IMG/VR virus record: IMGVR_UViG_3300044452_000303
Location: 1-33,243 of that record
Source of the DNA: a virus
Lineage: Duplodnaviria > Caudoviricetes
Length of the DNA stretch: 33,243 bases
Reading direction: 5' to 3' (one strand)
In this document: positions 220 to 33,243 of the stretch, in pieces
Layout of the letters: each line of letters starts with the position of its first letter
Position numbering within the stretch: the first letter of the stretch is position 1
Position numbers and translations under genes: made by a program
The notes under the pieces: model-generated
Told to the model about the DNA's origin: nothing
Databases searched by the model: none
Seen by the model: the letters and a program-made list of their open reading frames with translations, nothing else

Positions 220-602
220 GGTGCCTCCATGGTTGTGATGCCTACGGACAGCGAAATGCGGTCCAGCGGCGGAACAGTTGATGACTCAAAGAGCTGAGTG
301 GCGACCTGGTCAAATCGTCGTATTCGAGCGCTGTAGGATCCATTCACATCCAGCTCGTTGTTGACGGACCGGATCTGTGTGTAAATGGAGGTGCGGTGCC
401 GATCAACGACGACGCCGATCTGGGAGTGCGTCAGATCACACCGGGTATGAAGCCACCACGAGAGTGTTGATCGGGCCATACTGGCGTTCTCCCCATGGCG
501 TCGACACCTGATTTCGTCCGGCGTAACCCCGAACACAGTTTCTGCAGCCCACTCGGCGCGCTTGGCAGCCCAGTATGCCCTGTATGTCGCGTTGTCGATC
601 AT
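186..602 (-). CDS. DnaA C-terminal (domain IV)-like HTH protein
   Basis: AETVFGVTPDEIRCRR...ARSTLSWWLHTRCDLTHSQIGVVVDRHRTSIY parallels the Bac_DnaA_C pattern (VAxxFGxxxxDLxSxxR...ARQxAMYL...SLxxIGxxFxRDHTTV). 4-bp overlap with the upstream gene. Confidence 0.75.
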   Translation of the reverse strand: MIDNATYRAYWAAKRAEWAAETVFGVTPDEIRCRRHGENASMARSTLSWWLHTRCDLTHSQIGVVVDRHRTSIYTQIRSVNNELDVNGSYSARIRRFDQVATQLFESSTVPPLDRISLSVGITTMEAPCSDSFSFSIG

Positions 603-1447
603 CTCGAAGCCGCCCGTGCAGCTGCACGCTTGTTTTCCTGATAGGCTTTTGCCGTGCTCTTGTCACCGGCCAGAACTATCGTCCTCGTACCCTCTGTAAT
701 GGTCACGATCTCGTCCTTGTCGGACTCCTTGGCGAAGGGGTCTGGCTCCCAATCGTGGACACACTGCCAGCCCCCACAGTTGGTCAGGACGGGCTCCTTG
801 TTGCCGTTTTTAAGCTGCCGGATAGTGTCCACGTGGTGCGTGCTCCCGGCCATCGTGCGGCAGAATGCGCGCGTGACGCCCCGCACGTTGCCCACATATT
901 GATAGTAGAAGACCTCGGCGATCCGGGCCTTCTCGACCTTGGCCACGCGGGAGACTACACGGACTTGCGTCTTGGCGATGGCCTCCGCGTAGAATGCCGT
1001 CTTTTCACTGATTCCGGCGATGGCCTTTTCCAGATCATCCAGGGACTGCCCGGTCGTGACGGCCTTCCTGACGGCGTTCTGGATCTTGATGGCCGCGTCC
1101 TCTTCGTAGTCCCCGAACTGCTGGGCGTTCGCCTGCTCGATGGCATAGATGGCCGTGAAGTTGCGCGTGATATCATCGCCCAGGTCGGAATAGAGCTTGT
1201 TCACGGAATCGATGGCCGAGAACTGGCGCCCGAAAGCCTTGTCCACGTACGGCTCCATTTCACGGGCCATCAGCGTTCGCGCGAAACCCCGGATGTCCTC
1301 CGCAGCCGTCTTGGTGACCCCGGTCCTGGACAGATAGTCCATCACCTTGGCGCGCACTACCTCCAGCTGCTCTTCTGCCGAAAGGTCGCGGGTCAGGCGG
1401 TTCATCCGCTGCCGGAAGGATTGATATCTGGCGTCATCAACCGGCAT
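599..1447 (-). CDS. Mu gpF / SPP1 gp7-family minor head protein
   Basis: C-terminal YQYVG...TRAFC...G...GGWQCVH Cys/His motif typical of Phage_Mu_F. Confidence 0.75.
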   Translation of the reverse strand: MPVDDARYQSFRQRMNRLTRDLSAEEQLEVVRAKVMDYLSRTGVTKTAAEDIRGFARTLMAREMEPYVDKAFGRQFSAIDSVNKLYSDLGDDITRNFTAIYAIEQANAQQFGDYEEDAAIKIQNAVRKAVTTGQSLDDLEKAIAGISEKTAFYAEAIAKTQVRVVSRVAKVEKARIAEVFYYQYVGNVRGVTRAFCRTMAGSTHHVDTIRQLKNGNKEPVLTNCGGWQCVHDWEPDPFAKESDKDEIVTITEGTRTIVLAGDKSTAKAYQENKRAAARAASR

Positions 1448-1646
1448 CGAACATTTCCCCCTGGGTCAGCACGCGCATGGGCCGTAGGTGCTTTTCTATT
1501 GTGAGGAACCGGTACCCACACTGCAGGCACACGTAGCGCCGGGTGTCGTGATCTCCATAGGACTCCTTTCCGCTCAAATTCTTGAGCGGTTTTTTCATGT
1601 CCTCGGATGGCACGAAGCCTTTGTTTTTGCAGTTGGGGCACTTCAT
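1437..1646 (-). CDS. Zinc-ribbon protein (NrdR N-terminal / Ogr-Delta-like), possible late activator
   Basis: MKCPNC...RRYVCLQCGYRFLTIE, two CxxC pairs. Confidence 0.7.
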   Translation of the reverse strand: MKCPNCKNKGFVPSEDMKKPLKNLSGKESYGDHDTRRYVCLQCGYRFLTIEKHLRPMRVLTQGEMFDAG

Positions 1647-1652
1647 TGGCGA

Positions 1653-2201
1653 CTACCAGCTGACGTCAATTCCGCGAGTGTCCACGTGGCAGAAGGTGTT
1701 GTAGGCATTGATTCCGCCGTGGAAAATGAAGGCGCTGCCCTGGAGCGTGTTGTTGACCTTGAGCAGGTCTGGCCGGAAGGGACCAACCCCCGCCACAACA
1801 TCCATCATCACCGGGCAAGGGAAGGGCATTCCGCGCATTTCATCCAGCATCTTGGCCCACTCTTCAGGGGTGCCTGAAGCGGCGGTAAAGTCGAATGCGC
1901 GGAAGTCCTTGTGGGAGCTGAGCTCCGCACCACCGATGGACTGGTTGTATCCGTCATTCCGAAACCCGGACAGGAGGATTACACGGTCGTTCAGCTTGGC
2001 CCGGAATGCGTCCAGTACCAGCAGGGTCGGAATGCAATTGTAGATGAGGCCGACGGGCGGCATACTGTTCTTCACGCCGCCGGCGCTCGTGGAACTGGTT
2101 TTTACCAGCACCTCATCGACGCCGAAATGCTTGATGCCAGCGGCCTTGATCAGGTTCTTTACCTGTTCGCGGGTGGCGAGTCGTTTGGAGTTGTCAGTCA
2201 T
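1653..2201 (-). CDS. Peptidase M15 (D-Ala-D-Ala Zn peptidase) family, probable endolysin
   Basis: SGFR..YN..IGGA..SSH....AFD and HVDTRG motifs. Start placed at ATG 2201 (ACACC-ATG) because the ORF-track ATG at 2228 lies inside the ribozyme core. Confidence 0.85.
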   Translation of the reverse strand: MTDNSKRLATREQVKNLIKAAGIKHFGVDEVLVKTSSTSAGGVKNSMPPVGLIYNCIPTLLVLDAFRAKLNDRVILLSGFRNDGYNQSIGGAELSSHKDFRAFDFTAASGTPEEWAKMLDEMRGMPFPCPVMMDVVAGVGPFRPDLLKVNNTLQGSAFIFHGGINAYNTFCHVDTRGIDVSW

Positions 2202-2219
2202 GGTGTATCTCGGTTTTCG

Positions 2220-2281
2220 GCTGCTCATCAGGCCCGGACCGCCACGTCTGGACGAGGCCCCGGAGGGCCTTTCGCGGTCAA
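2220..2281 (-). ncRNA. Hammerhead ribozyme, type II (candidate); predicted cleavage between 2254 and 2253
   Basis: Minus-strand RNA: UGACC-GC-GAA-[AGGCCC uccg GGGCCU]-C^[GUCCaGAC guggcg GUCcGGGC]-CUGAUGA-GC. The full core is present (CUGAUGA 2231-2225, GAAA 2273-2270, CUC triplet), with stems I and III closed and a 2-bp open stem II. Confidence 0.8.
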
Positions 2282-2288
2282 GGGGAGA

Positions 2289-2912
2289 TCAGAGTGTGGA
2301 CAGGTCAGTGTTCACGCGCTGTTGCTGGCCCTTTTCATCGCGTTGGTAGATCCGGAGGTATTGGCAGCTGGAGGCGACGCTCTGGCTGTCACGGATGGCG
2401 CGCATGGCTTCCTGCCAGCGCTCATCGTCGATATCGAGCCGCGTCAGGGCGATGATGCGTCCGATGGACAGCCTGCCCTCCTTGTCCGTCTGGAACGCGT
2501 GCTCAACGAGCGCCTTGACGTTGTCATTGGCGTCCTCGGCCCAGCGGTGGATGCATTCGTCGACGATCTTCTTGGCCACCTGAATCCGCTCATCGAAGAC
2601 GATGCGGTCGGCCACCTGGATGCGGATTTCTGCATCGCCGTTGAAGGTGCGAAGGGTGACGTTTCCTTTTGCGCCGCCGACCTCGGTGTTGTATTCGGAA
2701 GCGGCCAGCTCGATGAAATCAGAGATCTCCATCATGGCGTCTTCCTTGGCGGATTTCAGGAGATCCTGCGCCCCGAGGACGCGGTCCAGGATGCCCCGGA
2801 CCAGTTCATCCCGGAGCTTGTCCAGGGGATCAACGAGGTTGACTGGTACCAGGTGGCCCTGGGCGTTTTCGAGGTATCCCTCGGGGACGGGTGTGGCTGT
2901 TTTCTTTGCCAT
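2289..2912 (-). CDS. DUF3164 family protein (Mu-like phage early protein)
   Basis: PEGYLENAQGHLVP...GGAKGNVTLRTFNG...FDERIQVAK...AFQTDKEG...DERWQEAMRAI signature. Start moved to MAKK at 2912. Confidence 0.88.
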   Translation of the reverse strand: MAKKTATPVPEGYLENAQGHLVPVNLVDPLDKLRDELVRGILDRVLGAQDLLKSAKEDAMMEISDFIELAASEYNTEVGGAKGNVTLRTFNGDAEIRIQVADRIVFDERIQVAKKIVDECIHRWAEDANDNVKALVEHAFQTDKEGRLSIGRIIALTRLDIDDERWQEAMRAIRDSQSVASSCQYLRIYQRDEKGQQQRVNTDLSTL

Positions 2913-3130: not shown

Positions 3131-3456
3131 GAGTGGACCCCCCGATAGGGCTTGGCGCAGCGCGGCATAAAGTCAACCCAACCCGTTTTCCAGGCATGCA
3201 AGCACGTCAGCACCCCGGAAATGTCATGCAGGAAGTCCTCGTCGGAGGATTCCAAGAGCGACTGAAAGTCCAGTTCGAAGCACAGCTCATGAAACAGCAC
3301 GATGTAACCCTGCAGGTCGAGTTGCCTTCGAGACAGGTAGGGCCAGCCCATCACCTGACTTGCCCGGACTCCGATGGAACCCAGCGTGTGCAGTTCGTCG
3401 GACGACAGCTTCAGTAGCGCTTTTCGGACATGCTCAAGGTTGCATACCACGTTCAT
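3127..3456 (-). CDS. Hypothetical phage protein (DUF6874-like)
   Basis: LDFQSLLESSDEDFLHDISG...TG...FMPRCA motif; ATGA overlaps at both ends. Confidence 0.65.
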   Translation of the reverse strand: MNVVCNLEHVRKALLKLSSDELHTLGSIGVRASQVMGWPYLSRRQLDLQGYIVLFHELCFELDFQSLLESSDEDFLHDISGVLTCLHAWKTGWVDFMPRCAKPYRGVHS

Positions 3457-4400
3457 GACGCCATCCTCCGAGCCGATGTCCGCGAAGACATCTGCTCGTT
3501 CAGTGCACCCATGATCCTGTTGACCAGATCAGGGTCCTCGTTGCGGCCATGCTCGATGTCGCTGATCGTCGATCGAGGAATACCGGTCAGGCGATCAACC
3601 TCCTTCAGGGAAAGTCCAAGGAGCTGGCGGAGCTGCCCAGGCGAAGATGCAATCATCGTTTCATCCAGCACCCGCACGCCAGCGGCCTTCATGTCCAGGA
3701 AGAGGTTTTCTATGGCGCTGTCCAGCGCCAGCGGCGTTTCGTATACGGCTGCCAGGCGGGCCTTGGCGGTGTCCGTGATCACGTCGCGGTAGATGGTGTC
3801 CAGGTATTCGATCCTGTCCTGAACGGGCATCCAGGCGCTCTGTCGAAGAGATATCTTCCTGGTCCTCAGGTTGACCTCCCCCATGCCCTCCAGTTTTGGG
3901 CGCACGGACCCGTGCCCGATCAGGATTACCGTGAATAGGAAGGACTGCAGCTTGAAGATGGTGCTCTCACGCATGTCCTTGATGGCCATGAGCGTGTTCT
4001 TGTGCAGCCGGTGCGCGTTGTCGATGATGATGACAACCTGCTGGCCCTCATGGACAACCAGGGAGCCAATGATCCGTGACAGCTGGATAGACCGGGCCGC
4101 AGCAGTTCGCCGGGGCGACTCGTCAGAGAGCGCATATATGGCGTGATCCATGATCGCGCCAATGTTCATTCGCTCCTTGTTCGGGTCTACCACATCCACG
4201 ACGCGAAGCCGGGGAATGCGCTTCAGGGTCTCGCGGACCAGGGTGGTTTTCCCGGTACCGAACTCGCCATCAATACAGAGCAGTCGCCGACTCTCGACGG
4301 CATCAAGAATTTCAGTGGAGTACTTTTCGTGGTCGGCACCCCAGTAAAGGGTGTCGGCACTCAGGCCAAAATGACGGAAAAGTGAACGATCGCGGTTCAT
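3453..4400 (-). CDS. Transposition AAA+ ATPase (MuB/ExeA-like) with C-terminal XRE HTH
   Basis: Walker A GEFGTGKT, Walker B IIIDNAH, and C-terminal LRQLLGLSLKEVDRLTGIPRSTISDIEHG. GGAGG lies upstream of ATG 4400, and the gene follows the transposase. Confidence 0.88.
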   Translation of the reverse strand: MNRDRSLFRHFGLSADTLYWGADHEKYSTEILDAVESRRLLCIDGEFGTGKTTLVRETLKRIPRLRVVDVVDPNKERMNIGAIMDHAIYALSDESPRRTAAARSIQLSRIIGSLVVHEGQQVVIIIDNAHRLHKNTLMAIKDMRESTIFKLQSFLFTVILIGHGSVRPKLEGMGEVNLRTRKISLRQSAWMPVQDRIEYLDTIYRDVITDTAKARLAAVYETPLALDSAIENLFLDMKAAGVRVLDETMIASSPGQLRQLLGLSLKEVDRLTGIPRSTISDIEHGRNEDPDLVNRIMGALNEQMSSRTSARRMAS

Positions 4401-4429
4401 AAAGCCTCCGTTGGAAGGGTTTGAGTCCA

Positions 4430-4458
4430 AGGCCGGGGTGGTACCAGCACCCCGGCCT
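4430..4458. promoter_or_regulatory. 11-bp stem-loop between transposase and ATPase
   Basis: AGGCCGGGGTG-gtaccag-CACCCCGGCCT, perfect inverted repeat. Confidence 0.55.
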
Positions 4459-4479: not shown

Positions 4480-6123
4480 TCATACGGCCAACCTGAGAGT
4501 TTCGTCAGACCCAAGCTGAACAAGACGTTCAGCCAGTGCCCGAATTTCGATAGTGGTCATTTCGTTGTGGAGGTTTCCGGCCTGCTGGCAATGGTCCAGC
4601 AAGTCGATAATCTGTGATTCGCTTTCGAAGACATCTTCAGATCGGAGAATGCGGCCAAGCTCTCCACGAGCCTCCAGGAGCGACACCCGATCTCCGGTAT
4701 CACTGGCATGGGTTACCGTCGGAGTCGTAGGCGAACCGATCTTCTTCCGCTCCTGACGGCGATCGATGGCCATGACCTTCTGCGCCTTCTTGACCCTGTC
4801 CTTGATGGAGTCAACAACAGGAAGCGGGGCCGTCTTCTCGAACTCGCCGTAAGCCTCATACTCGAACGGCTTCAGCTCAAGGATTCCACCCCGGTTGTCA
4901 TTGATGACCTCGCACACCCAGCCGCCATTCAGCGTCCGGTAAACGCGCGCAAGCTTCCCGAGGGCCCATGTCGCATGATTCGGAATCTGCAGGCGGAAAT
5001 TGTTCAGGCGGATGATGCCCGTCTTGCTGTCAATACTGCGCTCCCAGTTGCTGAATGCGACCGAGGACATTTCCACGTCGATGAGGGGCTGAGGATGCTC
5101 ACGGATGGACTGCATGTACACCTCGGCATTTGTCATGTCCAGGTGGAACGTATTCCGCTTGCCCTGTCGTTCAATACACCACTGGTGTGCGAGGCGCTGG
5201 ACCTCCGATAGCAGGATGTAGCTGCCCTCGCCATGCTTTCTTGCAATTCTGGTCGCCAGATCAAGCTCGAACGTCTGCCAAAGGCTCCGGAAGTTCCTCT
5301 CGATCATACCGCCGGACTCCTTGGCCCCTGGGCTCGACATGTGCCACTCCGTCCCTATGTGCTGCAATAAATCCTGTGTGATCCGGCTCTTAAGGAAAAC
5401 ACCCTGGTCTGCCTGAATGAGCTCTGGGCGATGACGGAGGAGGAGGGCATCGTCAGGACGATTGAAAAGACGGTCCAGCATCTGGATACCCATGGCAACG
5501 GTTTCGCCTGCCGCAGGTGTGTACATCAAGAGCGGAATACGCGTGAGCATGTCCATTATGCAGGCTACCCACAACCGCTTTCCAATGCGCCCGGCCTTGG
5601 CGTCCTGGTCTCTCTCGAATTTGGACGTAACCCGCACGACCCAGTCGTCGGAATCACCACCTACAGGCCGAATGGTCTGGAAGCACTCAGAGCGCGATGC
5701 GTCGTACAGCATGACCTGACACGCCCGATCAGGCTTCATGAGCTTGAACATCTTGCCGTCCCGATAGCCGTTCTCCGCCAAAGCGCGGTTTACGCCACTG
5801 GCGCTGATTTCGGATGCCCATTGATAGCCTTCATCCTTCAGGATGTCCAGGCATCGGCTTGTTGAAAGCTCTGTCTTTCCACCTCGGAAAAGGAAGCCTT
5901 GTTGCTTTACCTCCCAGATCATATCCAGCATGTCCGGCATGATTTTCTGGGGTTCTGATTGTCGCGTGCGCTTCCTGCCGGTAGCCCGCTGGATTTTACG
6001 CCGGAGCGTGGCCGGGCTCACCCCGAATGCGGTGGCGAATTCTTCAACGACCCGCCCCTTCTCCCCGTGCGGAGCCCGGTCTATCATTTCTGCTACTTCA
6101 CGCAAATCAGAATCGTATCTCAT
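4480..6123 (-). CDS. MuA-like DDE transposase
   Basis: N-terminal HTH (FGVSPATLRRKI) and an RNase H-fold core: MLYDAS, CIMDMLTR, IQADQG, PGAKESGGMIERNF. Confidence 0.9.
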   Translation of the reverse strand: MRYDSDLREVAEMIDRAPHGEKGRVVEEFATAFGVSPATLRRKIQRATGRKRTRQSEPQKIMPDMLDMIWEVKQQGFLFRGGKTELSTSRCLDILKDEGYQWASEISASGVNRALAENGYRDGKMFKLMKPDRACQVMLYDASRSECFQTIRPVGGDSDDWVVRVTSKFERDQDAKAGRIGKRLWVACIMDMLTRIPLLMYTPAAGETVAMGIQMLDRLFNRPDDALLLRHRPELIQADQGVFLKSRITQDLLQHIGTEWHMSSPGAKESGGMIERNFRSLWQTFELDLATRIARKHGEGSYILLSEVQRLAHQWCIERQGKRNTFHLDMTNAEVYMQSIREHPQPLIDVEMSSVAFSNWERSIDSKTGIIRLNNFRLQIPNHATWALGKLARVYRTLNGGWVCEVINDNRGGILELKPFEYEAYGEFEKTAPLPVVDSIKDRVKKAQKVMAIDRRQERKKIGSPTTPTVTHASDTGDRVSLLEARGELGRILRSEDVFESESQIIDLLDHCQQAGNLHNEMTTIEIRALAERLVQLGSDETLRLAV

Positions 6124-6131
6124 GGAATGCT

Positions 6132-6644
6132 CTATTGGGGATCGGATGTAGACTTCAACATCCGCTCCAGTCCCAGAATTACTTTGCTGGCGCGTGCAAC
6201 GCTCAGCATTTCGACCGTGGCCCTGCTCCCTATTTGCCTCTCAATGAAACCCAGCAACCGGTCCGGATTGGTGGCCCATCCCAGATCGTCCTCAAGGCGG
6301 CTAATCCTGTCTGCCTGTGCCTGCGTAAGCCAAGTGCCCACCTGCTTCGATCCGCGCCCTGAATACCGGCTCTCACGGCGGTTCGTCTGGCTACGGTTGT
6401 CGCCGGACCAGCCGTGCCGCTCTTTGAGGATGGATATCAACCGGCGACGGCCAACCCCATCCAGGCGTGCAGAAGACGGGCGCTCGGTGTCGTATTCCAG
6501 CCCCCGGTCAATCAACACGGATTCCACGGTAAGTCGGTATGACGACTCATTGAGCCGACCCTCTTTCACCAGGTCGTTCTTGGCGACGTGGATCAAAGCA
6601 AGCTCCTTCCGGCGGGTGTTCGATATTTTCGAGGAGACAGGCAC
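6132..6644 (-). CDS. Mu gp16/GemA-like regulator (DUF1018)
   Basis: LALIHVAK..L......YR, SSARL, and LLGFIERQ...LS...ASKVILGLERM motifs. Confidence 0.85.
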   Translation of the reverse strand: MPVSSKISNTRRKELALIHVAKNDLVKEGRLNESSYRLTVESVLIDRGLEYDTERPSSARLDGVGRRRLISILKERHGWSGDNRSQTNRRESRYSGRGSKQVGTWLTQAQADRISRLEDDLGWATNPDRLLGFIERQIGSRATVEMLSVARASKVILGLERMLKSTSDPQ

Positions 6645-7685: not shown

Positions 7686-7964
7686 TCAAGCTGCCTCTGC
7701 TTTTCGGTTGAAGAACTCGGAGATGTACTGCCTGGAAAAACCGTAGCAGTAAGCGATGTGGGATAACGAGTGGCCCTGCTCGTGCATCAGTGCCCAGAAC
7801 CGCCACTCGTCCTGCGTGCCCACATAGGACCGCGATTGGGCCTGAACACCAGAGGCCTTCAGGACTCTGCGAACGGTCTTGATAGACACGCGGAGCCGGT
7901 GGGCGATAACGACCACGGGACAATCGTGCTGGGCCATGGCTACGATGCGGTCGTGGTCAATCAT
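7686..7964 (-). CDS. Tandem HTH protein
   Basis: IAHRLRVSIKTVRRVL and SLSHIAYCYGFSRQYISE. The start is uncertain (7964, 7973 or 7985). Confidence 0.7.
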   Translation of the reverse strand: MIDHDRIVAMAQHDCPVVVIAHRLRVSIKTVRRVLKASGVQAQSRSYVGTQDEWRFWALMHEQGHSLSHIAYCYGFSRQYISEFFNRKAEAA

Positions 7965-8355
7965 TTTTGGCATCTCGAACCTCAATGAGACCAGTAGCCA
8001 AGGATTCCAGCCCGGAAATAGACTCTTGGACTGCGCTTTCCATGACGGCGCAACGAACGCAGGGGATCACGCTGAATCGCCTGAGGGTCGACAAACCCAG
8101 TCTTCGGCCAAACTGGTACCAAGAAGAAAGAAGAACCTCTGCATTCCTGATATCGGGGCCGTACACATCTGCCGGGGCGTAGGTGCACCGAAATTGAGGA
8201 TAGGGCTCTTCGTTGGGGTTCATTGTGAAGTGAACCCCGTCGATGATCGCGGTTACAGATTCCGTGCGCGCAGGGTTGATCCGCCTATCACCGGGTCGAC
8301 TAGATGGACTCATGGTGCCGTCCACCTGTCTCTGGATATCGCCTTCCGTAATCAT
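7957..8355 (-). CDS. Hypothetical protein
   Basis: Overlaps both neighbours in the operon; no recognisable motif. Confidence 0.55.
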   Translation of the reverse strand: MITEGDIQRQVDGTMSPSSRPGDRRINPARTESVTAIIDGVHFTMNPNEEPYPQFRCTYAPADVYGPDIRNAEVLLSSWYQFGRRLGLSTLRRFSVIPCVRCAVMESAVQESISGLESLATGLIEVRDAKND

Positions 8356-8567: not shown

Positions 8568-8634
8568 CCTAAAGTGAGTTTTCGTTCGTACTATAGTGCC
8601 TAATTGGTACCAAGATATTGAAGAGCATAATACC
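8568..8634. promoter_or_regulatory. Lysis/lysogeny switch region (divergent promoters and operators)
   Basis: AT-rich 67-bp gap between divergent HTH genes, with palindromes ACTATAGT (8590-8597) and TTGGTACCAA (8604-8613). Confidence 0.7.
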
Positions 8635-9363
8635 ATGCAACTCGATCCGGGAAGAATATTAGACAGATTGAGATCAGCGTATTCTCTTCCGTCAGATGTG
8701 GCGGTAGCAGAGTTTCTTGGCGTAAGCAGGAGTACTCCTGCAGGATGGCGTCACCGCGAATATGTGGACCTGGCGTTAATTGCCCGAAAATGCCCTGACC
8801 TGAATCTGGACTGGCTGGTTCGTGGCGACGGAAAGCCACTGAAGGAGGGCCTGTCCGTCGTACGAGAGCCCGGAGGTAGGCCGTTTGCGACGCCGGACGA
8901 CGATTTGCGCGTGCCTGTGATGGGGACGCCTCTTATGGGAGACAAGAGCACGCCCCAGACCCTTGACACTATCGGATCGTATGGATTTACGGTCCGGGAT
9001 TGGATAGAAGACCGTGCAATGGTTGATCCGGAGTCCTGCTTCTTCGCGGTCGTGGGAGATGGCAAGATGGTGGGCATGCTGGATTCAGGAGACCTCATGC
9101 TCGTATCACCGGCGTCCCGTATTGACAAGCATGGGATATATGCCTTTTTCCACAGGGGCGCTTACGTCGCGAGATACCTGAAACCAGATGATGACGGGAT
9201 CCAGTTCATACCACCGTACTCGGCATATCCTATTGAGGCGGTAAGGCCGTCTGAGGAGTTCCAGTTGTGTGGCAGGGTGGTCGCTGCACTGACGAGGATC
9301 TATTATGACGACCCTAGATGGATAGCAACCTTCGCAAGAAAGCAAAACGCAGAAATGTCATGA
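8635..9363 (+). CDS. CI-type repressor (Phage_CI_repr HTH + degenerate S24 domain)
   Basis: ILDRLRSAY...VAEFLGVSRST...W...LNLDWLVRG N-domain; C-domain FAVVGDGKM...SGDLMLV...GIYAF...LCGRVV. Confidence 0.88.
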   Translation: MQLDPGRILDRLRSAYSLPSDVAVAEFLGVSRSTPAGWRHREYVDLALIARKCPDLNLDWLVRGDGKPLKEGLSVVREPGGRPFATPDDDLRVPVMGTPLMGDKSTPQTLDTIGSYGFTVRDWIEDRAMVDPESCFFAVVGDGKMVGMLDSGDLMLVSPASRIDKHGIYAFFHRGAYVARYLKPDDDGIQFIPPYSAYPIEAVRPSEEFQLCGRVVAALTRIYYDDPRWIATFARKQNAEMS

Positions 9364-12813: not shown

Positions 12814-13314
12814 CTATTCCGGGCCCGAGAGCCACTGCTTCTTTCGGACGCGGTCCAGCGCCTCGTTCTTGAAGTCCCGAATGGCCGCCACAAGGTCTTC
12901 GCTGAGCACGGACTCATGATGCTCCTTCATGTGCCGAAGGAAGTCATTGAGGACGTGGTAGACCATGTGCGTGTGGTAGCTCTCATCGAACATGGTCTGG
13001 AAGGTCTTCGAGAGCTTGGCCAGCGCGTCGGTTTCCTTGGAGCCGAAGTCCGGTTTGTCCAGGAGTTCTTCCAGGCGGCGCATGACCTTGGCCATGACGC
13101 TGCCCGGCGCGATGGTGAGCATTTGCAGCTCGGCGCGCCACTCCTCGCGCTTATCATCCCAGGTGCGGCCGTCCATACCGGGTTTCATGCTGCGCTTGTG
13201 GATGGCGGTTTTTGACGGCTTGCCGTTGTAGATGCGCGAGATTTCACCGGCGGTCTTCCCGTCGGCGACGTACAGGCGCTCGATCTGGTCCCAGATATGG
13301 TCAGGATATCGCAT
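12814..13314 (-). CDS. Probable terminase small subunit
   Basis: N-terminal HTH (LYVADGKTAGEIS...W..KR), helical protein, lies between portal and terL. Confidence 0.7.
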   Translation of the reverse strand: MRYPDHIWDQIERLYVADGKTAGEISRIYNGKPSKTAIHKRSMKPGMDGRTWDDKREEWRAELQMLTIAPGSVMAKVMRRLEELLDKPDFGSKETDALAKLSKTFQTMFDESYHTHMVYHVLNDFLRHMKEHHESVLSEDLVAAIRDFKNEALDRVRKKQWLSGPE

Positions 13315-14453
13315 CAGTCCAGGAGAATGTCTGTGGCACGGGTTTGGCGAACGAGGGCCTGCTGGCCGGGATCAACGTAGAGGCCGAGCTTGCGGTACTC
13401 ATCGGGATCAATGGGCAGTCCGTGGCGGAAGGCCATGTCCACGATGTCCGCGTGCTCCTTGACGTCGACAGGCTTTTTCTTGTCGAGCTCGAAGCGCGGA
13501 TAGCGCTGGTCGGTAAAGTTTCGCCCCCAGATGGTCCGGATGAGCCGGTTCACGTGGGGCTCCAGCCAGTGCATGTCATCGACGGCGAGGTCGAAGCGGA
13601 CTTCGTAGCTGGACGTGTTGTCGCCCACTTGCAGGCCGCTCGACTGCTCGACGCTGTTGGCGTGTCCGAGCAGCGAAATGGCAATGCCCTTGTCCGCCCG
13701 CGCAACGTACTTGTCGTGGTCGCCTGCGGTCTTGGCCGACTCAATGACTTCGACAGATGACCCATCCGGGCCGATTCCCCGCGAGCTGGCGGCAATGGCG
13801 TTGACCGCATCTTCCAGCTGCTTCTTGAAGGCGTCATCCGATCCCGGAGGATACTTGCCCCAGATGAACGCTTCGCCCCAGTTCTCCATGAAGGCGCTCC
13901 AGGCAGCAACGCCATACTCTTTCAGGATGAACTCCCGGAGTACGGGCAGCATGACAGGCATCTTGGACGGGCGCATTTCCGTCACGAGGGCCGTTTCCGG
14001 AATTTCCTCCAGGCGCTGGCCCCAGTCGATTTTCAGAATGCGGTTTTCGTCCCGGCGGAAATACTTCTGGTCGAATGCTTCGAAGGCAACGGGTGTATCC
14101 CTGCCGTCCATCAGCTCCCACTCGAAGTCCACGACCGAATACGTGTACATGCGGGCGGCGTGGATTTCCTCCAGGAGATCCCGCAAGTGAAGCCGCTCCA
14201 GTACGCCCTGGATCCACTCGCGACGCTCGTTGTCCGTGGACTCGTCTTCGTAGCTCACAATCGAGTATCCGCGCTTGTATCCGGAGCGCCTGCCGATGAG
14301 GCACCCGGCCACGTGCGAGTCGGTCTCCGCCTCCTTCATCATGGCGATGAGGTTGCGCGGATCACCTTTTTCGTATTTCTTTCGGGCGTCCCGGAAACCC
14401 TTGGGGTCGAAGGATACGCGTGGTTTGGATGATTGGCGGGGTACTGCCAGCAT
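13314..14453 (-). CDS. Portal protein (Mu gp29 / DUF935)
   Basis: DSHVAGCL..R, WSAFMENWG....GKY and ADKGIAISLLG motifs. Confidence 0.9.
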   Translation of the reverse strand: MLAVPRQSSKPRVSFDPKGFRDARKKYEKGDPRNLIAMMKEAETDSHVAGCLIGRRSGYKRGYSIVSYEDESTDNERREWIQGVLERLHLRDLLEEIHAARMYTYSVVDFEWELMDGRDTPVAFEAFDQKYFRRDENRILKIDWGQRLEEIPETALVTEMRPSKMPVMLPVLREFILKEYGVAAWSAFMENWGEAFIWGKYPPGSDDAFKKQLEDAVNAIAASSRGIGPDGSSVEVIESAKTAGDHDKYVARADKGIAISLLGHANSVEQSSGLQVGDNTSSYEVRFDLAVDDMHWLEPHVNRLIRTIWGRNFTDQRYPRFELDKKKPVDVKEHADIVDMAFRHGLPIDPDEYRKLGLYVDPGQQALVRQTRATDILLD

Positions 14454-17343: not shown

Positions 17344-17603
17344 ACGCTCTCAAATTACTCGTAAGGCTCGCCAAGGCAGTCACGCCCCCCATTGGTGGAC
17401 GTCTGAAGCGCGCCGGTGCAAAGCTCATTGCAGGCGGCGCAGCCACGGGCGGCGTCAGCCTCTCGCTGCCCGACGTTCCGGATTCATGGGTCCAGGTTAT
17501 CCGCCTGGTCCTCGAAATCCTGACCGTCATCCAGGTCATCCTCGGCACCGTGATGGTCGGAGCCGGTCAGGTTCAGGCCGAAGGCCCTGTGGATGGTGAG
17601 TGA
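17340..17603 (+). CDS. Putative holin / small membrane protein
   Basis: Basic N-terminus and hydrophobic segments, 87 aa. Confidence 0.5.
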   Translation: MNALKLLVRLAKAVTPPIGGRLKRAGAKLIAGGAATGGVSLSLPDVPDSWVQVIRLVLEILTVIQVILGTVMVGAGQVQAEGPVDGE

Positions 17604-17872
17604 TGCCGGAATCGACGGACCATATCTCGCGGGACTACTTCGAGGAGAAGTTCCAGGGCATGTACCGGCTGCAGAAAGACATGCAGGAGGCCATGGTGCG
17701 CCGGGACGAAAAGGACAGCACCGACAAGTCTGAGCTGTTCAAGCGCATTGGAAAGGCCGAGGGGGAGATTTCCACCATCAAGGAGACCCGCCCGACCATC
17801 GGAAAGATTCTGGCCGCAATCGTCACGGTCTCCGGCCTGCTCATCACTGTTGCACAGCTCATCTGGAAATGA
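17600..17872 (+). CDS. Coiled-coil protein with C-terminal TM helix (XhlA/holin-like)
   Basis: Coiled coil followed by ILAAIVTVSGLLITVAQLIW. Confidence 0.55.
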   Translation: MMPESTDHISRDYFEEKFQGMYRLQKDMQEAMVRRDEKDSTDKSELFKRIGKAEGEISTIKETRPTIGKILAAIVTVSGLLITVAQLIWK

Positions 17873-28456: not shown

Positions 28457-29896
28457 ATGAACGGACAATCCCTTCTTTTCAACGAGTACCCGCGCGTCCG
28501 TCGCGCTGCAATTGACGCGGAAACTGCGGCTCAGACGGCCCAGGACTACGCCAACGAGTTCGCCGGGCTGGTGTACAACAGAATCACCATCGGCGGATAT
28601 GGCGCAGCGGTCTCGGTTTGCCCTCCACATGCATTGCCCCCTGGCATGACCGAGCTCCCCGGCACAAAATCCAAGCTGAGCGACGAATATGGTAACTACC
28701 AGTACATTGACGGCTCTCTGATGGTGTACGTGGCGATGCACTATTACAAGGTTGGCACCGGGGCGAATGGTCTGGCCGTCAATGAAATCGAGATCGCCGA
28801 TGCGCATGATTTCGAAGACCGGGCCGAGGCAGAAGCTGCGGGATTCGCCCTGGATCGCGCATTCATCAACGGCGGTTCTGTCATGCAGGGTGTCTTTGTC
28901 GACAAGTATCTGTGCTCCAAGGTTGCGAATGGATCAGGGTTCTCCGCAGGGTCCATCAAGTTCGGGCTGCCTATTTCAACCAGCTCGGCCCATAATCCGA
29001 TAGCCGATCTGAGCGCGTGCGCCGGTAATGCCTACTACGAAGTGGTCAATGCGGCAAAGGGCCGAGACGGCGTGAACGGAGCGGTGAATGCCGAATCGAT
29101 CTTCTTTTGCAACACGAGGTTCATTCGGGCCATGCTAGCCCGCCTGTCAATGGCTCATGGCCAGGCTTCTACATCCACCGCTCATTGTGCGTGGTACGAC
29201 GCGGGAGGCACGACCAATTTCCCGAAGGGATGCAACAACAATGCGCTCGGAGACGCGAACGACGGTGAAATCGCTTACGTGAGCGACGGATACAGCAATT
29301 GTGGCCAGACGGGTTCCGGAACGCCGTTCGCCAAGACGACACACAATGGGCAAGCCTGTGGGATCGCTGACCTGAATGGCAATATGTGGGAAATCGAGCT
29401 CGGCCTGACCCGGCCCGGATCAAGCCCGACAGATACGACGAATCAGAACGATACGGCGGCATTTTACATGCTGAAGGAGTCTGTTCGCGTTGAGGATCTG
29501 ACGGCAGGCTGGAACGCCGGAAACGATGCATGGGGGGATGCGACCCATCTGGCCACGCTCTATGACGCGATCGACATTCCGTACGTGATCAACACAGGCG
29601 TCTTGAATCGATTCGGAAGTGGTGCGAATCAGGTCCTGTCGGAGGCTATTTCGGGGGATGGATACAGGCTGGCAGGACTCGGCTTTCCAAAGGACTCAAA
29701 CGCCAGGAGCGGCGGTGGCACCAACCTTTTTGGCGCTGACTACTTCTACGAGTACCACAGGGCCAATCTCCCGCTCATATCGGGCGGCGCCTGGGACTAC
29801 GGCTCGACCGCCGGTGTCTGGACGGCCAACTTGACCAACTATCGTTCGTACTCGAGCACGAACGTGGGCTTCCGCTGCGCCTGTTACCCTGTCTGA
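28457..29896 (+). CDS. DGR target: Mtd-like receptor-binding protein (C-type lectin / FGE-sulfatase fold)
   Basis: VFVDKY, GIADLNGNMWE and C-terminal GGAW...NVGFRCA; the 3' end contains VR. Confidence 0.92.
   Translation: MNGQSLLFNEYPRVRRAAIDAETAAQTAQDYANEFAGLVYNRITIGGYGAAVSVCPPHALPPGMTELPGTKSKLSDEYGNYQYIDGSLMVYVAMHYYKVGTGANGLAVNEIEIADAHDFEDRAEAEAAGFALDRAFINGGSVMQGVFVDKYLCSKVANGSGFSAGSIKFGLPISTSSAHNPIADLSACAGNAYYEVVNAAKGRDGVNGAVNAESIFFCNTRFIRAMLARLSMAHGQASTSTAHCAWYDAGGTTNFPKGCNNNALGDANDGEIAYVSDGYSNCGQTGSGTPFAKTTHNGQACGIADLNGNMWEIELGLTRPGSSPTDTTNQNDTAAFYMLKESVRVEDLTAGWNAGNDAWGDATHLATLYDAIDIPYVINTGVLNRFGSGANQVLSEAISGDGYRLAGLGFPKDSNARSGGGTNLFGADYFYEYHRANLPLISGGAWDYGSTAGVWTANLTNYRSYSSTNVGFRCACYPV
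29772..29883 (+). repeat. DGR variable repeat (VR)
   Basis: 112-bp ungapped copy of 30342-30453 with 8 mismatches, all opposite TR adenines. Confidence 0.97.
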
Positions 29897-29916
29897 TCAC
29901 CGCGATAGCGGGGATC
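29895..29916 (+). promoter_or_regulatory. DGR target-recognition hairpin downstream of IMH
   Basis: GATCACCGC-GATA-GCGGGGATC, 8/9 pairs, GRNA-type loop. Confidence 0.7.
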
Positions 29917-29928
29917 CCGCCTTTCATC

Positions 29929-30315
29929 ATGAATGACACCCAAGCCCAGGCCAAAATGACGCAGGTTTACCTGCAGATGATTCGTCTTCTGCACGTCTAT
30001 CTGGCCCACTTCCCCCGGCATGAGAAATATGCGCTTTGCAACCGCATCAGAAACACGGCTTATGAAGTGTTTGACTACATCACCGAGGGGCACAAGGTCT
30101 TTCATAAAAAGACGACCTTGAGGAATCTGGATGTCGCACACGAAAAGCTCCGGATGCAGATCTACCTCGCCTATGAGATGGGGTATCTGGGATTCAAGGA
30201 TGGTCGTACGGCGGAGGACGCCGTCGATACCGGGGCCCGCCGACTAAAGGCAATCGGAGTCCATATGGACGAACTCGGCAGGATGATCGGCGGCTGGATC
30301 AAATCACAACACTGA
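29929..30315 (+). CDS. avd: DGR accessory variability determinant (four-helix bundle)
   Basis: FPRHEKYALCNRIR...K...LRNLD...LR..I.LA...GYL...ELGRMIGGWIK; located between VR and TR. Confidence 0.93.
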   Translation: MNDTQAQAKMTQVYLQMIRLLHVYLAHFPRHEKYALCNRIRNTAYEVFDYITEGHKVFHKKTTLRNLDVAHEKLRMQIYLAYEMGYLGFKDGRTAEDAVDTGARRLKAIGVHMDELGRMIGGWIKSQH

Positions 30316-30341
30316 AAATGGGCAATGCATTAGCGGTCTCG

Positions 30342-30453
30342 CGCTCATATCGGGCGGCAACTGGAACAACGGCTCGAACGCCGGTGTCTGGACGGCCAAC
30401 TTGAACAACTATCGTTCGAACTCGAACACGAACGTGGGCTTCCGCTGCGCCTG
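30342..30453 (+). ncRNA. DGR template repeat (TR)
   Basis: Intergenic, 25 adenines, 10 AAC codons in the target frame. Confidence 0.97.
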
Positions 30454-30574
30454 CTATCCATCCTCAAAGCCCATCCAGGGCATAGTGGATCACAGGGATG
30501 TATTGTCCTGCTAACGCGAAATACACCGATAATGCCATTCTGGTAGCCACGGCGAACGTCTGGCGGCATCAATC

Positions 30575-31603
30575 ATGAAGAGATACGGAAGCATATACCG
30601 CACGGTCATTTCGGCATCAAACCTGCACGACGCTTACCTGGAAGCGCGTAGAGGCAAGATGGGCCGGGCGTCGTGTTTTCACTTCAGCAAGCGACTCGGG
30701 GCCAATCTGGCGGACCTGGAGCACGAATTGCTGTCCGGGGAATACCGGCCTCGGCCCTACTGCACTTTCCGCGTCTACGAGCCCAAGGAACGGCTTATTC
30801 TCGCCCCGGCGTTCCGTGACATCGTTGTCCAGCACGCTGCCTACCGTCAGGTTCTCCCGATCTTTGACCGTTCATTTGTAGACACTGCGTTTGCGTGTCG
30901 CGTTGGCCGAGGCACGCATGCCGCGTCTGACTATATAATGAACTGCGTGAAGGAGTCTGGCCCAGAGGCCTACTACCTGCAGCTCGACATCAGGAGGTAC
31001 TTCCATAGCATTGGCCGTGACATGCTCCGGTCGCAGCTGGAGCGCAAGCTGAAGGAAGCCGCCCTGATCGACCTGCTGATGGGTTTTGCCCATAACGGGC
31101 AACCTGTCGGCGTTCCGATCGGGAACCTGCTCAGCCAGCTATTTGCGAACATATATCTCTCGCCCATGGATCACTGGATCAAGCGAGACCTGAAGATTCG
31201 CCACTACGCCCGATACGTTGATGACCTTGTATTGCCTGGACTGAGCCGACGCGAATGCGAGGTGGCCAGGAATCGTATTTCTAGGTATCTGGCCGACCGA
31301 TACGGAATGGAGCTGTCCAGGTGCGTGATCGAGAAGCAGTCCCGAGGCATCAACTTCTGCGGCTACCGGATGTGGGTCAACAAGCGACTCATTCGCAAGC
31401 ACAGCCTACACCGATTCAGGCGCCGGGTCCGTCAATCTGACCTGACGGCGGTTGTGTCCCTGCTTGGCCACGCCAAGCGCACCTCCTCACTTTCACACAT
31501 GACGAATTACATCAACGAGGTCAATCATGAACTCTATCAAGCGTTACCGGAAGATTACAGACGATCACACAACTCACCAGGTCCACTACGGCAGCCTGGA
31601 TGA
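30575..31603 (+). CDS. DGR reverse transcriptase
   Basis: EPKERLI.AP.FRD.VVQHA, LDIRRYF.SI, GVPIGNLLSQ (DGR-type SQ), catalytic RYVDD, NFCGY; 342 aa with no maturase or endonuclease domain. Confidence 0.96.
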   Translation: MKRYGSIYRTVISASNLHDAYLEARRGKMGRASCFHFSKRLGANLADLEHELLSGEYRPRPYCTFRVYEPKERLILAPAFRDIVVQHAAYRQVLPIFDRSFVDTAFACRVGRGTHAASDYIMNCVKESGPEAYYLQLDIRRYFHSIGRDMLRSQLERKLKEAALIDLLMGFAHNGQPVGVPIGNLLSQLFANIYLSPMDHWIKRDLKIRHYARYVDDLVLPGLSRRECEVARNRISRYLADRYGMELSRCVIEKQSRGINFCGYRMWVNKRLIRKHSLHRFRRRVRQSDLTAVVSLLGHAKRTSSLSHMTNYINEVNHELYQALPEDYRRSHNSPGPLRQPG

Positions 31604-32331: not shown

Positions 32332-33243
32332 TCAGTTGACGAATGTCAACCAGCCATGTGGATCGTTGCCGCGGTGCAGGATATCGAAGAAGGCCGTCTG
32401 CAGTTTTTCCGTGATCGGCCCGCGCTTGCCCGCCCCGATGGTGTGGTGGTCAATGGATCGGATGGGCGTCACTTCGGCTGCCGTGCCCGTAAAGAAAACT
32501 TCGTCAGCAATGTAGAGGGCTTCCCGCGGAATGAGCCCTTCCTTCACCGTCAGACCCATCTCTTCCGCCAGCGTGACAATACTGCTGCGCGTGATTCCGG
32601 GCAGGATGGAGAGTGCTACCGGCGCCGTGTAGAGTACGCCGTCCTTGACGAGGAACAGGTTCTCACCCGAACCCTCTGCGAGATGCCCGTTCACACTGAG
32701 CATGATGCCCTCTGAAAAGCCGTTCAGAACGGCATCCATCTTGACCAGACTCGCATTCAGATAGTTGCCACCCGCCTTGGCCATGGATGGAAACGTGTTG
32801 GGCGCCATGCGATTCCAGGAGGCCACATGGACATCGACACCATTCTCCAGGGCTTCCGGACCCAGGTAAGCGCCCCATTCCCAGACGGCGATGATGGTAT
32901 GCACGGGGTTCTTCAGCGGATTCACGCCCATGGGTCCGTAACCGCGGAAGGAGAGCGGCCGGATATAGCACTCCTTCAATCCAGAGCGCCGGATGGTCTC
33001 CAACGACGCCTCCTCGAGCTCTTCCCGGCTGTATCCCAGATCCATGCGGTAAATGCGGCCTGAATCAATAAGTCGCTGCATATGCTCCGGATTCCGGAAG
33101 ACCGCCGAGCCCTTGTCCGTCTTGTAGCATCGGATGCCCTCGAATACGGACGACCCGTAGTGCAAGGCGTGCGTCAGGACGTGGACGTTGGCATCTTCGT
33201 GTCGGACGAACGAACCGTCCATCCAGATATCTGGCTTCGACAT
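32332..33243 (-). CDS. ilvE: Branched-chain amino acid aminotransferase
   Basis: [50 protein letters not shown]. Confidence 0.97.

Follow-up and report, generated by a model that had tools for sequence, protein, structure and literature searches.

Genomic setting of the DUF3164-M15 junction

The window, which denotes here the whole stretch of 33,243 nucleotides that was analysed, is a Mu-like prophage whose early genes lie on the minus strand. Read along this strand, the gene order is Mor-like, GemA, transposase, transposition ATPase, DUF6874, DUF3164, ribozyme, M15_3 peptidase, Zn-ribbon protein and gpF-like protein; a CI-like repressor (8596-9363) stands ahead of the Mor-like gene, and head, tail and DGR genes are found further on. 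The 87-nt gap between the DUF3164 and M15 genes (2288-2202) is almost wholly occupied by the ribozyme. A preliminary description of this DNA had placed a hammerhead on the sense strand of a Mu-like early operon, directly before an M15 peptidase gene, and this placement is borne out, the peptidase gene matching Pfam PF08291 and PHROG 894. The genes on which the argument draws are the following:

7686..7985, minus strand: Mor-like gene (PHROG 836, E 2e-5; own GemA/Mor profiles, E 4e-6 and 0.004)
6132..6644, minus strand: GemA (PF06252; own GemA/Mor profiles, E 4e-6 and 0.004)
4480..6123, minus strand: Mu-like transposase (PHROG 310 and 296 cover transposase and ATPase)
3453..4430, minus strand: transposition ATPase (PHROG 310 and 296, as above)
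2289..2912, minus strand: DUF3164 gene, 207 aa, whose stop ends 13 nt before stem II of the ribozyme (PF11363, E 1.3e-72)
1653..2201, minus strand: M15_3 peptidase, endolysin-like, 182 aa (PF08291, E 3.6e-13; PHROG 894 endolysin, E 3.5e-12)
1437..1646, minus strand: Zn-ribbon protein, 69 aa (NrdR-like Zn ribbon, E 8.4e-6, sub-threshold)
599..1447, minus strand: Mu gpF-like head protein (PF04233, E 2.7e-6, slightly under the cut-off)

The activator gene that had been placed downstream of the ribozyme is not supported: the Mor-like gene and GemA lie upstream, and the downstream Zn-ribbon/HTH matches are sub-threshold. The location of both genes upstream of the transposase sets the window apart from most of its relatives. 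The promoter and terminator scan stayed at chance level, with no minus-strand site at the DUF3164-M15 junction.

The M15 protein scores 50 bits with PF08291, against a cut-off of 23.2, and its residues H97, D104 and H172, which we take to be the zinc ligands, are invariant in the three aligned rows. It is endolysin-like, and we regard it as a putative endolysin with predicted peptidoglycan hydrolysis activity; it is also the single stand-alone lysis match among the 50 window ORFs scanned. A protein search with the M15 sequence returned two proteins, one of them the window's own, while no relative was confirmed in the viral contigs searched and no matching solved structure was found.

Several other features of the window were recorded. 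The gpF-like gene is distant from the portal gene (13314-14453) and the terminase. On the plus strand, a diversity-generating retroelement at 28457-31603 comprises a candidate target (28457-29896), Avd (29929-30315) and RT (30575-31603), together with a 123-nt repeat pair that is 91% identical (29767-29889 and 30337-30459). A 72-aa minus-strand ORF at 1-219, with a hydrophobic N-terminus, a lipobox-like LVGC motif and no family match, could be a spanin-like or exclusion lipoprotein, and a 90-aa plus-strand ORF at 17600-17872, far from the M15 gene, has a C-terminal hydrophobic helix and is possibly holin-like. The minus-strand ORF at 32332-33243, which ends the contig, resembles by eye a host branched-chain aminotransferase, so that the right prophage end would precede it.

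A type II hammerhead ribozyme

The search with Rfam covariance models yields a Hammerhead_II (RF02276) match on the minus strand at 2277..2215, which spans model positions 1-66 of 66 and scores 58.4 bits (E 9.1e-10), well over the gathering score of 37. Among the six Rfam matches listed for the window, it is the only one that reaches its own gathering score, and the type II call of the preliminary description is thereby upheld. The elements of the ribozyme and its immediate surroundings are as follows:

2215..2277, minus strand: type II hammerhead, entire Rfam match (RF02276)
2274..2275, minus strand: 5' strand of stem II, G2275 and C2274, pairing with G2224 and C2223 (2 bp; both pairs unchanged in 41/41 aligned copies)
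2270..2273, minus strand: core GAAA, preceded by C2274 (from the sequence; invariant in the alignment of copies)
2255..2270, minus strand: stem III hairpin of 6 bp, made up of A2270-U2255 and five G-C pairs and closed by UCCG (in context, pairing probability 1.00)
2253..2256, minus strand: CUC triplet (2256-2254) and predicted cut C2254/G2253 (Rfam alignment)
2232..2253, minus strand: stem I hairpin, eight positions (2253-2246 with 2232-2239), including the A2249-C2236 mismatch (alignment)
2225..2231, minus strand: core CUGAUGA (sequence and alignment)
2241..2244, minus strand: UGGC of loop I, one half of the pseudoknot (95.7% paired over 164 cells)
2218..2221, minus strand: 3'-tail half of the pseudoknot, GCCG (alignment; architecture as in the available text of PMC3088659)
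2274..2279, minus strand: 5' arm of a competing helix, pairing with 2242-2237 (minimum-energy fold; unconserved)
2208..2211, minus strand: weak Shine-Dalgarno-like motif GAGA, 6 nt upstream of the ATG (GAGG in locus L133; function inferred)

The three core segments of a hammerhead, CUGANGA, GAAA and an NUH triplet, are present at 2231-2225, 2273-2270 and 2256-2254, respectively, the GAAA bases being those that we number G12, A13, A14 and A15.1. Loops close stems I and III and stem II is open, which is the type II topology, with one mismatch in stem I. The core pattern occurs once in the window and also in 1 of 100 shuffles, and no second hammerhead was found in the window. Across 45 copies, the cleavage triplet is GUC in 41, GUA in two and CUC in two, namely the window and L133 (L followed by a number designates a locus compared here).

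All core coordinates of the preliminary description agree with the minus strand, and its predicted cut at 2254/2253 falls 52 nt upstream of the M15 ATG at 2201. Conservation in homologues was assessed on an alignment of 41 of the 45 descriptor matches, which leaves out two duplicates (L199 and L268) and two copies with long stem III inserts (L203 and L213). The core GAAA is invariant, and 98.0% of 820 cells are paired over the entire structure, with 157 two-sided changes; for stems I and III this figure is circular, since the copies were chosen for pairing in these stems. The element is thus confirmed, on sequence and fold conservation, as a genuine type II hammerhead, for which self-cleavage is predicted.

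The loop I/3'-tail pseudoknot and a competing helix

In type II hammerheads, the pseudoknot is formed by loop I pairing with the 3' tail past stem II (Perreault et al. 2011, PMC3088659). In the 41 aligned copies this pairing extends to 95.7% of 164 cells, a value reached by none of 500 shuffles, with four two-sided changes, all of them at one pair. Pseudoknot pairing was not a selection criterion for the copies, and the sequences are related, so the comparison with shuffles is to be read as support and not as a probability.

The preliminary description had instead assigned the pseudoknot to the 5' tail and the distal part of stem I. The complementarity is present, yet it is not the type II pseudoknot, and the bases 2221-2218 of the actual one lie partly beyond the range 2220-2281 then considered, which therefore did not cover it fully. 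As a conserved pairing the 5'-tail helix was rejected: 50.8% of 246 cells are paired versus 48.6% after shuffling, 44 of 500 shuffles are as high, and its covariation score is equalled by 7 of 500. Because it occupies stem II and stem I bases, this helix would compete with the active fold. A change at 2240, found in L133 and in contigs of runs X9, X10 and X14 (X numbers denote sequencing runs whose DNA contigs matched the window), breaks one of its pairs, which the main contig of run X8 retains.

Distribution in Mu-like early operons

The survey comprised 169 DUF3164 loci, each taken with 3-4 kb of flanking DNA; they are the 80 best of 582 and the 80 best of 517 confirmed matches, plus nine. 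It used a model built from the 41-copy alignment, and most of the matches found had trained it. The ribozyme gave 51 matches in 46 of the 169 loci, corresponding to 37 of 114 clusters at 90% identity. All 51 have the sense orientation; 50 are found at most about 2 kb downstream of DUF3164, and 46 of the 51 lie within 1 kb, the DNA scanned amounting to 619 kb upstream versus 611 kb downstream. GemA follows the ribozyme in 43 of the 50 cases, precedes it in none and was not seen in seven, and Mor follows it in 41 of 50 and likewise never precedes it. What the ribozyme marks in Mu-like early operons is a region and not any single gene.

No ribozyme match lies within 4 kb in 123 of the 169 loci, and no other ribozyme class was found in the 42 of these 123 that were scanned with Rfam; the element is hence dispensable for most of the loci. 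Its presence is clustered but patchy, with 15 changes on a 116-row DUF3164 FastTree versus 32.8 after shuffling, and at least five presence/absence changes are forced by well-supported branches. Several DUF3164 loci carry two copies. A separate pattern scan returned 123 viral loci, some of them short or overlapping, of which 44 pass the descriptor and 13 of these 44 have DUF3164 in the available DNA.

Further observations concern individual loci. The one match upstream of DUF3164 (L162, 82-153) is a hammerhead directly before the transposase gene. Copies with an altered core occur in L204 (4629 and 6219), L297 (4917 and 5500), L162 (4968), L232 (2701) and L197 (4985), mostly with a U inserted after the core heptamer and ahead of stem II; this may be a recurrent variant or decay. 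The viral contigs L060/L061 and L083-L085 hold six to seven type II hammerheads within about 6 kb. Matches to C4 antisense RNA, isrK and Proteo-phage-1 are found in hammerhead-free loci (L140, L145, L146, L151, L153, L158, L278 and L144), 1.5-3.5 kb downstream of DUF3164.

Proposed constitutive cutting of the early transcript

The reading that we favour, and hold to be probably correct if only just, is that the hammerhead is a trigger-free (constitutive) cutter of the early transcript at 2254/2253, after which the two halves are independent. The sequence, the conservation of the fold and the position are observed, and transcription through the site, cleavage and an effect on RNA stability are inferred. 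The transcript would be cut soon after synthesis, likely without any trigger. Given the end chemistry described for self-cleavage (PMC6765202), the stem III hairpin and a cyclic phosphate would terminate the upstream product; its downstream counterpart would carry a 5'-OH and open with the stem I hairpin, at a distance of 52 nt from the M15 ATG. Capped by these hairpins, the halves would decay and be translated separately, in the manner of an insulator ribozyme. A 5'-OH end resists RNase E, and what such an end does here depends on the nucleases of the host. Direct data on 5'-OH ends were not found in the available parts of PMC4033574 and PMC6993053. In favour of the reading stand the conserved fold, the sense-only orientation and constant position relative to DUF3164, gemA and mor, an upstream stop at most 15 nt away in 48 of 50 distinct copies (9.8% at random positions), a start at most 20 nt past the pseudoknot tail in 35 of 41, the variety of the next genes, and the retention of the ribozyme in L133 and in contigs of four runs while the middle of the M15 gene diverges. 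It also gains by analogy from RiboJ and from related prophage hammerheads, for which cutting has been shown both in vitro and in E. coli (PMC3088659). Against it stand the stem I mismatch and the unfavourable nested folding of the window copy, described below, and the many related loci that do well without a ribozyme match; a promoter inside DUF3164 is also conceivable.

The window allele and its predicted folding

The closest relative, L133, has the same gene order, an M15 protein that is 71% identical and an almost unchanged ribozyme. No RNA data set was among the 16 runs listed in the search for transcripts, the contigs compared being DNA. The ribozyme is also kept in contigs of four runs, in three of which, compared over a long stretch, about 310 nt of the middle of the M15 gene are replaced. 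One contig of run X8, assigned by depth, appears to have a two-sided stem I change (2247 with 2238). Run X6 carries the window allele with zero differences, which indicates that the mismatch A2249-C2236 is not an assembly slip.

In nested folding, which omits the energy of the pseudoknot, the window copy lies 6.4 kcal/mol from the active-compatible fold, the fifth worst value of 45 copies (median 3.3 kcal/mol; L133 4.1 kcal/mol), and its stem I probability is near 0 in the native context. The plain fold of 2300-2200 is no stabler than shuffles (z -0.61), a value that is uninformative for a pseudoknotted RNA. Masking of the 5' flank as a way to relieve the competing helix is unsupported, the gap still being 5.8-6.6 kcal/mol. 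According to this model, the window copy may be a slower cutter than the other copies.

It is conceivable, but in our judgement unlikely, that the family is functional while the window allele misfolds, cuts poorly and is decaying. The mismatch is the lone unpaired cell of 41 at that stem I pair, the relatives compared having G at 2249, competing folds win in the nested model and the Shine-Dalgarno-like motif is weaker than in L133, all of which would accord with decay. Nevertheless, core and pseudoknot bases are all intact, the defect is a single mid-stem mismatch, the folding model leaves out tertiary contacts as well as the pseudoknot, and the flanking genes are intact.

Spacing to the flanking stop and start codons

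Constitutive cutting may also be set against a cutter gated by translation, in which a terminating ribosome would cover stem II and GAAA, or a loading 30S subunit would cover the pseudoknot tail, so that cutting would reflect whether the neighbouring genes are being translated. The spacing would suit such gating: of 50 distinct copies, 20 have the upstream stop immediately next to stem II and 27 have it at most 1 nt away, as compared with 0.4% and 1.3% at random positions, and the downstream start is found a median of 15 nt past the pseudoknot tail. However, short distances are to be expected in compact phage genomes in any case, and a stop also lies within 7 nt of 15 of the 32 other type II copies. 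Moreover, the copies are related, the upstream ORFs were called mechanically with a PHROG match for 13 of 40, the gap between stop and stem II in the window itself is 13 nt, and the active fold is not favoured even without the 5' flank (gap given above). Taken together, gating by translation is improbable, to about the same degree as decay of the window copy.

Release of the ribosome-binding site by cleavage was also considered as a general mechanism and rejected, its predicted accessibility being almost unchanged in the 41 copies (median change on cutting +0.009; above 0.15 in 3 of 41).

A proposed link to lysis

In the preliminary description, cleavage splits the transposition genes from the lysis genes. 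As a dedicated lysis control, cutting would set when, or how strongly, the endolysin and head genes are expressed compared with the genes for transposition. In favour of such dedicated control, the ribozyme directly precedes the sole stand-alone endolysin-like ORF of the 50 scanned, its position at the junction is kept in L133 and the four runs, and the junction has no terminator-like site, whereas in L283, which has a similar gene order and no ribozyme, the M15 gene is preceded by a hairpin with a T-run (one case, read by eye). The genes that follow the ribozyme elsewhere do not uphold the link: in 42 loci they comprise 11 PHROG families and 18 genes without a match (GemA 6, PHROG 3273 5, PHROG 5671 3, PHROG 421 2, HU 2 and five single families among the tally), and an endolysin-like gene comes next in just one, L133. 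The M15 genes of L163 and L199 come after mor, some 2.7 kb past the ribozyme; no sensing element was found, and the nearly constant predicted access of the ribosome-binding site likewise argues against control of this kind. We therefore consider it quite unlikely.

M15-like genes occur in six other loci, five of them after mor, presumably the usual lysis position, and one shortly after DUF3164, in L283, where gemA and mor lie upstream and the ribozyme is missing. The L283 segment 4560-5140, as read by eye, contains an HU-like gene and short repeats along with the hairpin and T-run before the M15 gene. The adjacency of ribozyme and M15 gene in the window follows from the location of gemA and mor upstream of the transposase in this lineage. 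On the gene orders compared, the lysis link is lineage-specific and is not supported as a rule. No described role of type II hammerheads at lysis genes or stop codons was found in the literature searched, in which subscription journals are thinly covered.

The two preceding proposals may be combined: the ribozymes would be translation-gated splitters in Mu-like phages, and in the rearranged lineage of the window the RNA cut would time the endolysin at the early-to-lysis boundary, the ribozyme replacing the terminator and activated promoter that other phages use there. This joint reading is again doubtful, at a level similar to that of dedicated lysis control. Finally, the ribozyme might be a neutral or hitch-hiking module at a site of small-gene turnover, which we consider very improbable. 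The patchy presence (the 15 tree changes, at least five of them forced) and the two copies in several loci would suit this, but the sense-only orientation, narrow position and compensatory changes point to selection on the RNA; a few copies (L197, L204, L162, L297 and L232) have altered cores.

Relation to known systems

Type II hammerheads are very common in bacteria, near prophage genes, and processing of polycistronic phage RNA has been proposed for them, with cutting demonstrated for three clusters in vitro and for one in E. coli (PMC3088659). With this class (RF02276; PMC3088659) the window element shares the core order, the 2-bp stem II, the 4-bp pseudoknot and the prophage setting; it differs in having CUC instead of the usual GUC, an A-C mismatch in stem I and a single copy. 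The clusters of Clostridium scindens, Azorhizobium caulinodans and Agrobacterium tumefaciens (PMC3088659) are similarly intergenic in a polycistronic phage transcript, with a proposed cut into shorter mRNAs, but they are clustered and their cleavage was tested, whereas the window ribozyme is single and known from sequence.

According to a 2023 paper (PMC10085705), the genes with which hammerhead and twister ribozymes of bacteria are most strongly associated are those of Mu-like phages, for a reason described as unknown. These Mu-associated ribozymes resemble the window element in their Mu-like transposable prophage and in their early-operon region near DUF3164, while the window lineage departs from them in having gemA and mor upstream and the ribozyme directly before an endolysin-like gene.

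RiboJ provides a functional parallel, as its self-cleavage ahead of the RBS gives the downstream RNA a 5'-terminal hairpin, and in E. coli it raises the transcript about twofold and the protein two- to tenfold (PMC6206723). In contrast to the window element, it was engineered from sTRSV, carries an added hairpin and is placed after a promoter; it is not a homologue in context. The glmS ribozyme (PMC6765202) is likewise self-cleaving upstream of a bacterial gene, but it belongs to a different class, is metabolite-dependent and leads to decay, and the window copy has no sign of a ligand site.

Implications

Both the association with Mu phages and the idea of operon processing are already in print (PMC10085705 and PMC3088659, in their available text). 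The window ribozyme is one more member of a common family, and its identification is correct and largely ordinary. What purpose self-cleaving ribozymes serve in phage operons continues to be described as unknown (PMC10085705, PMC6765202), and the window locus leaves this question unchanged. The locus is nevertheless a convenient test case, as it combines a single ribozyme, a possible lysis read-out downstream and naturally occurring alleles with differences in stem I. Were gating by translation or the timing of lysis to be demonstrated, it would be among the very few defined roles of self-cleaving ribozymes on the bacterial side.
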